This document shows, one piece after another, positions 14,063 through 17,372 of a stretch of 33,438 bases of DNA. How positions within the stretch are numbered: position 1 is the first letter of the stretch; each line of letters begins with the position of its first letter. The stretch is from an uncultured Acidimicrobiia bacterium. Its GTDB lineage: Bacteria; Actinomycetota; Acidimicrobiia; Spongiisociales; JAENVV01. Where the stretch lies: assembly GCA_965366365.1 (NCBI GenBank), contig CBDUEV010000031.1, positions 1 to 33,438 on the forward strand, written 5' to 3'. A program made the position numbers and the translations under genes. Under the pieces are notes generated by a model that did not search any database, was not told the origin of the DNA, and was given only the letters and a program-made list of their open reading frames with translations.

Positions 14063-15502
14063 TTGGCAGTGAGTGCAACAGGGACCCGGACAAGGGGGAA
14101 TGTCTCTGGCGGCGATTCTGCCGCGCGCAGCGCCATGGTCATCTCCCTGGTTTTTCTCGTCCTGGCGGCGCTTCTCTCCTTCGTCGCCTCCCTCAAGTTT
14201 GCCTTTCCCTCGTTCGCCGACGGGAGCGCCCTGCTCTCGTACGGTCGTCTCCGCCCCATGGCCATCAACGCGTCCGTCTATGGCTTCCTCACCTTCAGCA
14301 ACCTCGCCGCCGTCTACTACCTGCTGCCGAGGCTGACCGGCACCCGGCTCTGGCAGGAACGACTGGCGGGTTTGAGCGTGGCCGTCACGGCCGCAGTCAC
14401 CGCATTGGCGATCTTCTCGGTCGGCTTCGGATTCAACGAGGGACAACTCCTCACCGAGTTCCCCCTCGTCATCGACATCATCCTGCTGGTCCTGTACCTG
14501 CTCCCCCTCCTGATCACCGTGCAGACGATCCGGGCGAGAACCGAGCAAAACATGTACATCAGTCTTTGGTACGTCCTCGCCGGACTCGTCTGGCTCGTCG
14601 GTTTGACGGTGGTGGGCAACATCCCGGGATCGGGCGGCGTGGCGTCCGCGCTCCAGAACCGCTTCTTCGTTTCGGGCCTCCTCGGAGTGTGGGTCATCGG
14701 CGTCGGAGTGGGAGCCGTGTACTACGTCCTCCCCAAGGCCACCGGCAACCCCCTGTACAGTCGCAACCTCGCCATGGCAGGTTTCTGGTCGCTGGTCTTT
14801 GCTCAGCTCTGGACGGGCGGCGCGTCGTTCGTCTTCGGTCCCGCCGGTGATTGGATCGAGACCGTGTCGGTGGTCTTCGCTCTCGCCATGGTGGTCCCAG
14901 CCCTCGCCGTGCTCGCCAACTTCATCGGCACTCTCGACGGGTCGTGGGATCTCATCCGCGACCGGTCGGAACTCCGGTTCGGCATCGTGGCCGCCATCAT
15001 GAGCGTGTTCCTGGCCGGCGTCACCGGCCTCCAAGGCTTCCGCTCGATCTCGGCGGTGGTGGGATTCACGACCTTCGAAGACGGGACTCGCTACGGACTC
15101 ATCTTCGGCGTCGGATATCTGTTGGCGGCCTCCTTCCTCTATCACGCCGTGCCGCGCTCCATGGGACGGGCACTGTTCTCGGAAGGCCTCGGTCGACTTC
15201 ACCTGCGACTCACGCTGTGGGGTGTGGGCGGGGTTGTCATCCTCACCTGGCTGGCCGGTCTCGCCTCGGGTTACACCTGGCTCGGCGGCGTGACGACCGG
15301 ATCCTTCGACAGCGTCGGCACCGGTTTCATCGAAACGCTGGACAACGTGCGCTCTCTGTACGTTCTGGCGGCAATCGCCGCGGCGGTGGCACTGGCCGGG
15401 CAGCTCGCTTTCGCCACCAACGTGTACCGAACGATCACCTCCGGAGAGCCGGTGGATCGGGAGATCCTCGTGGAAGTCCAGGACGAGGAGGTGGGAGCGT
15501 GA
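14063..15502 (+). CDS. CcoN-like (cbb3-type heme-copper oxidase subunit I fold) membrane protein lacking all canonical His metal ligands
   Basis: 12-TM protein with blocks alignable to CcoN ([50 protein letters not shown]). Only 2 His in 479 aa. TTG start with AGGAG 7 nt upstream. Confidence 0.8.
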   Translation: [479 protein letters not shown]

Positions 15503-16338
15503 GCGAACATTCGGCAGCCGTGGCCGCCGCGCTCGGCGTCCCCGAGGACCTCGTCATCAAGTCGGCCACGGCGCGGGCCCAGGCTTCAGGAAGCACAACG
15601 GAGGAAGTCCTGGCGGCCTGGAGCGGCGGCGGAGAGGTCCCGGCGGCCGCTCCGAGCGCCACGCCCCCCGCCACCGACGAGGCCCAGGCGGCGACCCCAC
15701 CGGCTACCGATCCCGCTCCGGCCGACATGTCCCCGGAACCCGGGGAAGCCGGCGCCGAATCACCGCTTCCTGTGGAGGGCGCCCCTGTCTCGTCACCTGG
15801 CGGATCTGGCCCGGTCACCGTCATCGATCGCCGGGCGAAGGCCGCCCCGATACTGACCGGCCGCCGCGATCGACCCCTCCTGGTACTCGCCGGCCTCGTG
15901 GCATTGTTCGTCCTCGGCGCCGTCTTTGCCGTCAGCCTGCCCGGGGCTGAGGCTCGGAACCTGGCGGCCGATCAGCTGCCCGGAACCACTCCTCAGCTCA
16001 GCGAATTGGCCCAGGAAGGTAGAGAGATCTATCTCACGGAAGGTTGCTTCTACTGCCACACCCAACTCGTACGATCGGTGGTGACCGACGTCGGGCTGGG
16101 CACGGTGACCGAACCCGGGACCGCACCCAGCCTGTCACCCGAGACGTATGGCTTCCAGCGGGTCGGACCCGATCTCACCCACGTTGGATCGCGTGAGCCG
16201 ACCAACGATGCGGCCTGGCTGCGTAGCTACCTGGAAGACCCCACGGCCGAGCGACCGGGGACGCTCCAGCCCAGCTACGCGTACCTGTCGGACAATGAGA
16301 TGGACGCACTCGTGCAGTTCCTCCTGGAATCGGAGTAG
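15499..16338 (+). CDS. CcoO-like membrane-anchored monoheme cytochrome c with an N-terminal helical module
   Basis: GTG start overlaps the CcoN-like stop (GTGA) and is preceded by GGAGG. One TM helix, then REIYLTEGCFYCHTQLVR...GPDLTHVGSR...YLSD (CcoO-like). The ORF-track entry 14851..16338 is the same frame, over-extended. Confidence 0.8.
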   Translation: MSEHSAAVAAALGVPEDLVIKSATARAQASGSTTEEVLAAWSGGGEVPAAAPSATPPATDEAQAATPPATDPAPADMSPEPGEAGAESPLPVEGAPVSSPGGSGPVTVIDRRAKAAPILTGRRDRPLLVLAGLVALFVLGAVFAVSLPGAEARNLAADQLPGTTPQLSELAQEGREIYLTEGCFYCHTQLVRSVVTDVGLGTVTEPGTAPSLSPETYGFQRVGPDLTHVGSREPTNDAAWLRSYLEDPTAERPGTLQPSYAYLSDNEMDALVQFLLESE

Positions 16339-16343
16339 GTCGA

Positions 16344-17372
16344 ATGAGCGATTTTCTCGCCGCCGCCGCTGCCGCCGTAGGTGGGCCGGAAGAGCTCGTC
16401 GAGCGATCGGCCCGCGCCCGCGCCGCAGCCACGGGTGCGGACTACGAAGCGATACTCCAGGCTTGGGCCGGCGGCGGTGAAGCGCCTGCCCCGTCGACAG
16501 TGTCCGGTTCAGCACCTGCCGCCGCGGAGGAGCCATCGGCGCCGGAAACGCAGCCACCAGCCGAGGCACCTTCCGAAGCTCCGGCAGAGGCGCCGGACCC
16601 GCCCGCACCGTCGGGCGTGGAAGCCGCCGCGGACGAGGGTCGGGATGCTCCCCGCGTCGTCGAGGGCCCTCCCCCACCCGCAACGGTGAGCGTCGAGGAA
16701 GCCGCCGATTGGGAGGTGGTGACCACCGTCCCGGCTGCCGGCCTCAAGGAACGAACCGCTTCGCTCATTCCTGCCTGGCTGATGGGTTTCTTCGTTCTCA
16801 TTCCGCTCTTTGCGGTCGCCTACATCGCCGTGTACTCGAACGGACCTGAGTGCGGGTCGGGCGGCCAGCTCAGGGTCGATTTCCGCAATCAACTCGTCAA
16901 CTGCGACGGATCCGCCTACGAGGGCGCGGGCGGGCCTGGCGGTGGCGGGATCAACTACGTGGCGATCGGTGCGGACGTCTACACCAATGTGGCTCAGTGC
17001 GCAGGATGTCACGGTTCCGACGGTGGCGGTGGCAGTGCCGGCCCCACCCTCTTGGGGGTCAACGGGACCTTCGGTTCCTGCGCCGACCACCAACAGTGGA
17101 TCACTCTGGGCAGCCAAGGATGGATCGACACGATCGGCCCGAACTATGGGGATGCCAACAAGCCGGCCGGGGGCTTCGGAGCCAAGATGCCCGGTTTCGC
17201 CTCACTCACAGCCGAGCAACTCGCGGCCGTGACCGTGTACGAGCGGGTGGTGTTCGGCGGAGCAGGCATCGATGAAACACTCGAGAATTGTGGCCTCGTA
17301 GAGACCGAAGAGGCACCAGATGAGGCACCGACCGATGCCGAAACGACCCCAACCACAGAGCCCGCTTCCTGA
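16344..17372 (+). CDS. Membrane-anchored monoheme class-I cytochrome c (CcoP-like C-domain) with an N-terminal helical module
   Basis: GGAGTAGG Shine-Dalgarno. The N-terminal module and a Pro/Ala/Glu linker are followed by one TM helix, a single CAGCH, and an MPGF Met ligand. Confidence 0.8.
   Translation: MSDFLAAAAAAVGGPEELVERSARARAAATGADYEAILQAWAGGGEAPAPSTVSGSAPAAAEEPSAPETQPPAEAPSEAPAEAPDPPAPSGVEAAADEGRDAPRVVEGPPPPATVSVEEAADWEVVTTVPAAGLKERTASLIPAWLMGFFVLIPLFAVAYIAVYSNGPECGSGGQLRVDFRNQLVNCDGSAYEGAGGPGGGGINYVAIGADVYTNVAQCAGCHGSDGGGGSAGPTLLGVNGTFGSCADHQQWITLGSQGWIDTIGPNYGDANKPAGGFGAKMPGFASLTAEQLAAVTVYERVVFGGAGIDETLENCGLVETEEAPDEAPTDAETTPTTEPAS

Follow-up and report, generated by a model that had tools for sequence, protein, structure and literature searches.

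The stretch of DNA analysed here, a 33,438-nt window from an uncultured Acidimicrobiia bacterium (contig CBDUEV010000031.1 of assembly GCA_965366365.1), carries at positions 14063-17372 a three-gene module that, judged from its sequence, is a non-catalytic derivative of a cbb3 oxidase operon. The first gene (14063..15502, + strand) encodes a 479-amino-acid (aa) protein with 12 transmembrane (TM) helices which is related to the oxidase subunit CcoN and lacks all of its metal-binding histidines (CcoN-like). It is followed by genes for a CcoO-like (15499..16338, + strand, 279 aa; O-like) and a CcoP-like (16344..17372, + strand, 342 aa; P-like) anchored monoheme cytochrome c. Throughout this study the evidence consists of sequence, predicted models and gene order, and taxonomy follows the labels of records of metagenome-assembled genomes (MAGs). 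It is firmly supported that CcoN-like is a functional protein under purifying selection, with its fold and its heme c partners kept; alignment also gives firm support to the view that it cannot bind heme b, heme b3 or CuB and is not a reductase of O2 or NO. As regards its role, we consider it fairly probable, though well short of certain, that the module acts as a non-catalytic scaffold or relay together with, and likely docked on, the Rieske/cytochrome b6 complex (b6c complex) encoded by the divergent neighbouring operon.

By both homology and fold, CcoN-like is a member of the heme-copper oxidase (HCO) subunit I family. It matched the Pfam model COX1 (PF00115) with E=4.9e-41 over model positions 3-435 of 436 (141.4 bits against a cut-off of 34.8), and phmmer aligned it full length to Pseudomonas stutzeri CcoN (3mk7_A, E=1.4e-35). 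The ccoN model TIGR00780 was also matched (E=1.7e-50), yet the score of 172.3 bits lies below the curated equivalog cut-off of 583.15. An AlphaFold2 model of the single chain, built from an input alignment of 29 family members, showed 12 TM helices (predicted local distance difference test score 86.3, predicted TM-score 0.88), and its top PDB match in Foldseek was again 3mk7_A (TM-scores of 0.86 and 0.89, root-mean-square deviation 2.8 Å). Foldseek ranks 1-7 were all CcoN chains (TM-scores 0.85-0.89, deviation ~2.8 Å), followed by cNOR NorB and then by other oxidases. Because the profile, phmmer and Foldseek matches agree, we regard CcoN-like as a genuine member of the heme-copper oxidase fold, nearest to the C family. 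This bears out an earlier note on this DNA, which had proposed a CcoN relationship for the 479-aa product by eye.

When phmmer aligns CcoN-like with P. stutzeri CcoN, each of the six canonical metal ligands is found to be replaced. The two heme b ligands H60 and H347 correspond to A67 and Y344, the heme b3 ligand H345 to T342, and the CuB ligands H207, H257 and H258 to S204, A254 and S255, respectively; the cross-linked Tyr (Y251, partner of the CuB ligand H207) is Q248. The six His of a functional HCO are thus missing, as are the His of the cNOR NorB set (six His plus Glu FeB ligands). The whole protein contains two His (H361 and H380, outside the ligand columns and non-conserved), no Cys and seven Met, of which only M66 stands beside a former ligand and is not conserved across the family. 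The earlier note had described this loss, together with the presence of just two His, and had quoted the blocks RLRPMA (aa 62-67) and TGGASFVF (aa 251-258), both of which are present. Its reading of the last ligand block was correct as to the loss of His and wrong in register, the true pairing being G-T-R-Y-G-L against G-H-V-H-A-G rather than 'RYGLIFG'. Its claim could have failed on a conserved His at the ligand positions or on a lack of similarity to HCO subunit I, but profile and structure alignments gave no ligand His and the similarity is highly significant.

A column-by-column comparison of full-length representatives (76 ligand-less against 33 canonical CcoN) separated what was lost from what was kept. 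Conserved in real CcoN only were the six His, Y251, T215, Y317, H337, G32, G324 and G441, while positions conserved in both groups were structural (e.g. G54, R55, W162, Y223, Y224, F244, W245 and W267). The Y251 column holds W, A, G, S or Q in the 76 ligand-less representatives and never Y. T215 and Y317, which are I212 and S314 in CcoN-like, are kept in <20% of ligand-less proteins versus at least 94% of real CcoN, and Y223/Y224 are kept in the ligand-less family; T215, Y317 and Y223 are conserved polar residues of the single proton-input channel of cbb3 oxidases. Just one position, P188 of CcoN-like, is newly conserved in the ligand-less group, so that no site has arisen in place of the lost ones. 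What stands at the old ligand positions differs freely between ligand-less subgroups, and in the query's subgroup these residues are small. As judged from these columns, the catalytic apparatus is selectively taken out of the CcoN-like family, with nothing in its place.

These observations bear directly on two alternative explanations. According to the first, which we consider highly improbable, the protein would still reduce O2 or NO with its metals held by unconventional ligands. Public databases do name such proteins as oxidases (ligand-less proteins P0004, P0014, P0016, P0021, P0027, P0031, P0042 and P0165 carry the NCBI/JGI name 'cbb3-type cytochrome c oxidase subunit I'), and HCO families with altered sites exist: in gNOR one His is replaced by Asp, which the most recent survey describes as the first exception to the HCO ligand set (PMC11214002). 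CcoN-like shares with gNOR and other divergent HCO families (Murali et al. 2024, PMC11214002) a non-canonical active site recognised from environmental sequence. It differs in having replaced all six metal ligands, both heme b ligands included, so that no redox chemistry is plausible in this subunit. Moreover, the catalytic Tyr is gone together with the six ligands, no conserved Cys, Met, Lys, Tyr or His substitutes were found, and the ccoN equivalog score reaches 172 bits of the 583 needed. Unconventional metal ligation was ruled out on the lack of conserved substitutes; with heme b, heme b3 and CuB no longer bindable, CcoN-like would be unable to reduce O2 or NO.

The second alternative, to which we assign a small probability, is that the fold now serves another purpose (a channel for ions or protons, a transporter, or a site for a different cofactor or quinone), the cytochromes acting as regulators or electron donors. 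Strong purifying selection on a 12-TM protein would fit such a role, as would the polar residues D18, R62, D138, R159 and E467 conserved in the Acidimicrobiia subgroup and the small residues at former ligand sites, which could leave cavities in the query's subgroup. However, the single new conserved position is a proline and no new polar or metal-binding constellation has emerged, T215 and Y317 of the proton channel are lost rather than kept, and R62, R159, E132 and, by eye, D138 are common to real CcoN. The free variation of ligand-replacing residues between subgroups likewise argues against re-use. The 'channel' role raised in the earlier note therefore found no support.

The loss of ligands is the property of a large family rather than of one gene. 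When 5.8 billion proteins were searched with a word index, 32 homologues came back (31-78% identity), every one of them without any of the six ligands, and the next matches were canonical CcoNs having all six. A profile search among the representatives of 1.84 billion clusters (50% identity) gave 2456 relatives at E<=0.001; among the best 150 of these 2456, 92 had none of the six ligand His, 34 had all six and the remainder had one to five. A neighbour-joining tree built without the ligand columns (a crude tree, with no bootstrap) placed CcoN-like in a clade of 59 representatives, 57 of which had no ligand His and two of which had one, while other partly degenerate lineages branched closer to the canonical enzymes. 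Among canonical CcoNs, those closest to the family profile came from Anaerolineae and Armatimonadota MAGs. The same His loss recurs in related actinobacteria, where the earlier note had suggested looking for it, and holds across the whole family. No description of ligand-less CcoN homologues was found in the searchable full-text literature, in which subscription journals are mostly uncovered, so that an earlier mention is possible.

The ratio of non-synonymous to synonymous substitution rates (dN/dS, Nei-Gojobori method) was estimated in seven close pairs of orthologous loci with 87-96% amino-acid identity. For the CcoN-like gene it ranged between 0.064 and 0.111, comparable ranges being 0.10-0.22 for O-like, 0.06-0.10 for P-like, 0.03-0.19 for the Rieske protein and 0.06-0.12 for a 212-aa membrane protein of the neighbouring operon. 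Cytochrome b6 was far more constrained than CcoN-like (0.006-0.025), and a single pair of real CcoN gave 0.024. The dN/dS values of the CcoN-like gene exclude a pseudogene or an assembly artefact. A dead gene would indeed be expected to lose all catalytic residues, which is the one point in favour of a decaying pseudogene or a frameshift artefact, an explanation that we rate as having almost no chance of being correct. The open reading frame (ORF) is intact and of full length with high GC content at third codon positions (0.83), its dN/dS is low (0.06-0.11), intact orthologues were found in dozens of independent assemblies, with identities down to ~30%, the gene is still translationally coupled to the one after it, and the fold prediction is confident. 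Selection and conservation thus ruled out a frameshift or pseudogene.

At the level of gene organisation, the CcoN-like ORF begins with a TTG start codon and is preceded 6 nt upstream by the Shine-Dalgarno sequence GAGGAG. The N-like and O-like genes overlap in the sequence GTGA (GTG at 15499-15501, TGA at 15500-15502), as the earlier note had stated, and only 5 nt separate the O-like from the P-like gene. The resulting tightly coupled N-O-P order is that of a ccoNOQP operon, with no CcoQ-like ORF found between the O-like and P-like genes. Since homologues of N, O and P stand in ccoNOP order, the module can be read as a degenerate ccoNOP operon, in keeping with its proposed cbb3 origin.

As inferred from their conserved motifs, the O-like and P-like partners remain redox proteins, which leaves two c-hemes in the module. 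The O-like protein matched PF02433 FixO (E=1.2e-18, 67.9 bits, above the cut-off of 29.6) and PDB CcoO chains (E ~1e-13), while scoring below the cut-off of the equivalog TIGR00781 (65 against 200.65 bits). It consists of a cytoplasmic motif (aa 13-45, see below), an A/P-rich linker, a TM anchor (aa ~127-145) and a heme-binding domain with CFYCH at aa 183-187, CxxCH being kept in every aligned homologue. The sequence GPDLTHVGSR follows at aa 223-232; the His of this GPDL-[TA]-H-[VAI]-G motif is conserved in most O-like family members, real CcoO usually having Arg there. The column of the axial Met of CcoO (S-x-M-P-x-Y) is occupied by Gln in O-like (TLQPSY, aa 255-260, window positions 16261-16278) and by Met, His or Gln in its relatives.

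The second anchored monoheme cytochrome c of the earlier note can be refined to a CcoP-like protein. In Pfam it matched Cytochrom_C (E=1.2e-7) and, weakly and on the anchor, FixP_N (E=0.0027, 17.8 bits against 24.9), and it remained far from the equivalog TIGR00782 (16.3 against 179.95 bits). A profile of seven P-like homologues retrieved four CcoP chains first (E 5e-9 to 4e-8; 8snh_G at 5e-9 and 3mk7_C at 3e-8), the match falling on the C-terminal heme domain of CcoP. P-like carries one CxxCH only (CAGCH, aa 219-223) and is not diheme as CcoP is. The remaining layout comprises a cytoplasmic motif at aa 13-45, a TM anchor at aa ~141-163 and an axial Met in KMPGF (aa 281-285); CxxCH is kept in every aligned homologue. 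All the cytochrome motifs quoted in the earlier note (CFYCH, GPDLTHVGSR, CAGCH and MPGF) are present. Four further P-like Cys (C170, C187, C246 and C316), located outside CxxCH, are invariant in the seven aligned homologues, which suggests two disulfides in the extracytoplasmic domain.

In many members of the CcoN-like family, N and O are fused into a single protein of ~620-690 aa that has one CxxCH, and the frequency of such fusions argues that N and O still assemble.

The divergent neighbour, described in the earlier note as a bc-type complex operon, is a complete Rieske/cytochrome b6 complex operon on the - strand, comprising cytochrome b6, subunit IV, a Rieske motif and a c-type cytochrome. 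In order of transcription it encodes a 212-aa membrane protein (13050..13688), a 2x[4Fe-4S] ferredoxin-type subunit (12600..13049; Fer4 families, E down to 2e-11), a cytochrome b6-type subunit (11791..12579; PF00033, E=1e-45), a subunit IV-like protein with a long cytoplasmic N-terminal extension (10549..11778; PF00032, E=3.6e-7), a Rieske iron-sulfur protein (9677..10552; CVHLGC...CPCHGS, with Pfam Rieske matches in orthologous loci), a membrane-anchored diheme cytochrome c (8246..9673; CASCH and CARCH, Pfam matches) and a small membrane protein of 119 aa conserved in related loci (7883..8242). Cytochrome b6 scored 298.6 bits against NF040969 (the NCBIfam model of Geobacter ExtP, cut-off 290) and carries a heme ci-type Cys (LCLGG, aa 81). 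The ferredoxin subunit, having no signal peptide, is presumably cytoplasmic; it is 68-85% identical across related loci, and the 119-aa protein 51-80%. The 212-aa protein belongs to no Pfam or NCBIfam family and has 317 homologues, of which all that bear an organism name are Acidimicrobiia 'hypothetical proteins'; its AlphaFold2 model (pLDDT 76, pTM 0.53) gave no significant fold match in PDB. Taken together, the ferredoxin, the 212-aa protein and the heme ci-type Cys suggest a site of iron-sulfur input or output on the n-side of an actinobacterial b6-type complex.

Association between the module and this operon was assessed by two kinds of survey. In a GTDB scan with a profile of 10 closer family sequences, the ten-gene divergent arrangement recurred in ~28 species representatives, nearly all of them labelled as Acidimicrobiia MAGs and none a cultured strain, and it was also found in further metagenomic contigs, one of 2.9 Mb. 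Across related loci the identity of N-like drops to ~30% while that of b6 holds at 79-91%. In the ~50 mostly Acidimicrobiia loci where a CcoN homologue was found to adjoin a b6c operon of this type, that homologue always lacks all six ligands. Of the loci from an independent metagenome scan, seeded with cytochrome b6 alone, 47 had 2.6 kb or more of sequence upstream of b6. A CcoN homologue stood at the expected place in 20 of the 47 and was ligand-less in 20 of 20, with CxxCH in the same frame, in the style of an N-O fusion, in 10 of these 20.

A further link between the two operons is a 33-residue motif with a consensus of roughly G-[IVM]-P-E-x-L-[LV]-x-R-S-A-x-A-[RK]-A-x-A-x-G-x-x-x-E-x-V-L-A-x-W-x-G-G. 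A hidden Markov model built from its four copies had exactly four matches in the window: two in subunit IV (aa 3-35 and 113-145; 11674-11772 and 11344-11442, - strand; E of 3e-19 and 2e-17), one in O-like (15535-15633, + strand) and one in P-like (16380-16478, + strand). All four lie in cytoplasmic N-terminal extensions before the membrane anchor, with an Ala/Pro/Glu-rich linker after each. The same proteins carry the motif in ~30 related loci, and real cbb3 loci are without it. Loci with N-like mostly have three or four copies versus zero to two in loci without it, a comparison confounded by lineage. The motif matched nothing in Pfam and had no real match in PDB, where the sole match at E<0.01 was an artefact of summation over TALE repeats.

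We propose that CcoN-like, with its 12-helix heme-copper oxidase fold, is under selection because it would provide the membrane scaffold on which O-like and P-like, the cytochromes of what is left of a ccoNOP operon, are held at the outer membrane face. These cytochromes would form a two-heme module working with the complex of ferredoxin, b6, subunit IV, Rieske protein and diheme cytochrome c. Most likely, the module would be docked to this b6c complex, as what remains of an ancestral supercomplex of complex III with a cbb3 oxidase. Its part there could be structural and/or that of a relay passing electrons from the cytochrome c of complex III to a presumed real terminal oxidase encoded elsewhere. 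In this scheme we infer the physical association with b6c, and likewise which way electrons would flow and which acceptor would finally take them up. The scaffold or supercomplex reading is consistent with the conserved divergent synteny, the motif shared across operons and the frequent N-O fusions.

Several points weigh against the proposal. No N/O genes occur at the expected position in 27 of the 47 b6-seeded loci, which argues that the b6c complex works without the module in many lineages. At four loci (L003/L004, L013 and L033) the N-O-P module is seen without b6c genes in view, two of them being short or cut contigs. The variable sixth ligand of O-like could mean relaxed constraint on its heme. 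Co-localisation, moreover, is not co-assembly. Among the 27 b6-seeded loci without N/O, 18 keep the ferredoxin and membrane-protein genes, eight the ferredoxin only and one neither; in all four that were inspected (L073, L086, L087 and L118; ~4900-6050, - strand) the divergent gene is a P-like cytochrome alone. Gene content thus depicts the N-O-P module as an accessory of one complex III sub-lineage, with P-like as the more widespread partner. The idea that no b6c complex of this type could do without it as a subunit was rejected, as about half of the b6-seeded loci are without N/O.

The same observations lend some weight to a rival reading, in which CcoN-like anchors the O-like and P-like proteins as an autonomous membrane-bound cytochrome c carrier, co-regulated with b6c and not part of it, that would diffuse or act alone between complex III and an oxidase or other redox partner. 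The N-O-P loci with no b6c genes in view and the many b6c operons of this type without N/O both speak for such a carrier, and so does locus L049, where a ligand-less N-O pair adjoins a multiheme cytochrome and a nuo operon in the absence of b6c. On the other hand, divergent adjacency persists even though N-like identity falls to ~30%, the 33-aa motif is specific to subunit IV and the two c-cytochromes of the module, and motif copies number three to four with N-like versus zero to two without (with the lineage effect mentioned above). On balance we consider an autonomous carrier rather unlikely, albeit with an appreciable chance of being right.

Comparison with characterised systems helps to place the module. 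Relative to cbb3 CcoNOP of P. stutzeri (3MK7) it has the same order N-O-P, the same 12-TM fold of subunit N (TM-scores 0.86-0.89), an O subunit that is a TM-anchored FixO-family monoheme cytochrome c, and a P heme domain resembling the C-terminal domain of CcoP. It differs in lacking the ligands of heme b, heme b3 and CuB, the cross-linked Tyr, T215 and Y317, in having one heme in P-like rather than the two of CcoP and Gln in place of the O-like axial Met, in the long cytoplasmic N-terminal extensions with a novel motif in O-like and P-like, and in that every equivalog model is far under its cut-off for the module proteins.

In complex III-cbb3 supercomplexes (6XKW from Rhodobacter capsulatus, 8SMR from Pseudomonas aeruginosa, and 9G83) a cbb3-type module is likewise paired with a Rieske/cytochrome b complex. 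The pairing is a physical docking on bc1 in those structures and is seen here as conserved divergent operons; the known partner is a working oxidase and ours is cofactor-less; and complex III is bc1 in the former but a split b6/subunit IV with an extra ferredoxin subunit in the latter. The obligate bcc-aa3 supercomplex of Corynebacterium and Mycobacterium (7Q21, 6HWH) shares with our system an actinobacterial host and an anchored diheme cytochrome c in complex III. It differs from the window's complex III, which has b6, subunit IV and ferredoxin instead of QcrB together with the extra N-O-P relic; no aa3 genes were found in the window. In bcc-aa3 actinobacteria cytochromes c are membrane-bound rather than soluble, as are those encoded in this window.

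A degenerate module was also found in a different setting. In an Opitutae MAG (CANJLB010000008.1; L043, 3697-10713, and also L041) the CcoN-like protein has lost five of the six ligands, H207 being the one that is left. Its gene comes directly after an alternative complex III (ACIII) operon (NrfD/ActC, ActD, a c-type cytochrome and an ActF-sized ORF), and next to it on the far side stand genes for FixO-like and cytochrome c proteins. The neighbours of degenerate cbb3 modules thus include quinol:cytochrome c oxidoreductases of two unrelated kinds. Co-location of ACIII and cbb3 genes is known from Verrucomicrobia (PMC6688271), and those loci resemble ours in that a quinol:cytochrome c oxidoreductase operon adjoins ccoN/O-type genes; the Opitutae locus differs from the window in having ACIII instead of b6c, in retaining H207 and in being co-directional rather than divergent. 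A stronger version of our proposal would hold that the CcoNOP module is a stoichiometric, integrated part of an Acidimicrobiia b6c supercomplex, an oxidase converted into a heme c conduit and scaffold and tethered to subunit IV by the motif, and that the same route, from a complex III-docked oxidase to a non-catalytic subunit, was taken independently at ACIII in Verrucomicrobiota. We advance it tentatively, as a real possibility that we would not bet on.

The existence of a large, selected clade without any ligand indicates that the heme-copper oxidase fold can outlive its chemistry, and provides a natural experiment on scaffold function apart from catalysis. The Opitutae and Acidimicrobiia cases suggest a general rule whereby complex III-docked oxidases can degenerate into structural or relay subunits. 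There is also a practical consequence for genome-resolved studies, in which a 'cbb3' annotation is read as high-affinity microaerobic respiration; for this clade such a reading is probably wrong. One MAG survey covering Acidimicrobiia counts cbb3 oxidases among the respiratory capacities of many of its MAGs. Acidimicrobiia are an abundant, mostly uncultured actinobacterial class, and the link of the module to an unusual b6c complex (with its 2x[4Fe-4S] subunit, 212-aa membrane subunit and heme ci-type Cys) points to an uncharacterised respiratory architecture.

The remaining features of the window (GC content ~64%) can be summarised briefly. The intergenic region between the divergent operons, located by reading of the sequence, spans 13689..14062; a promoter scan of it returned one weak sigma-70-like match (13851-13880), not above chance, and neither a terminator scan around the N-O-P module nor a search of Rfam families gave anything above chance or any match, respectively. 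A homologue of the Rex-type redox-sensing regulator (7203..7868, + strand; Put_DNA-bind_N and CoA_binding domains) adjoins the end of the b6c operon, here and in related loci. Regulation of the module by Rex was considered and set aside: despite this proximity, no canonical operator (Rex box TGTGAA-N6-TTCACA, up to two mismatches) occurs anywhere in the window. Beyond the b6c operon, the Rex homologue is accompanied by a geranylgeranyl-reductase-like flavoprotein gene and nuoA-D.

Some individual loci deserve mention. The forest-soil contig L049 (1104-10886) holds its distant ligand-less N-like and FixO pair, with no b6c operon, among genes for an 871-aa multiheme cytochrome, a cNMP-binding polyferredoxin, an FHA-domain flavoprotein and CcmE, with a GGR-like gene and the nuo operon downstream. 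In two MAGs the cluster or parts of it were present twice on separate contigs (L012/L022 in CAWIFX01 and L018/L020 in DATADW01), the duplicates being 90-94% identical or fragments. Finally, L026 and L033 are labelled 'uncultured Gammaproteobacteria'. The former has a complete Acidimicrobiia-type cluster with a b6 that is 81% identical to that of the window and the latter holds the N-O-P module only; these bin labels are probably wrong, or else the contigs were mis-binned.

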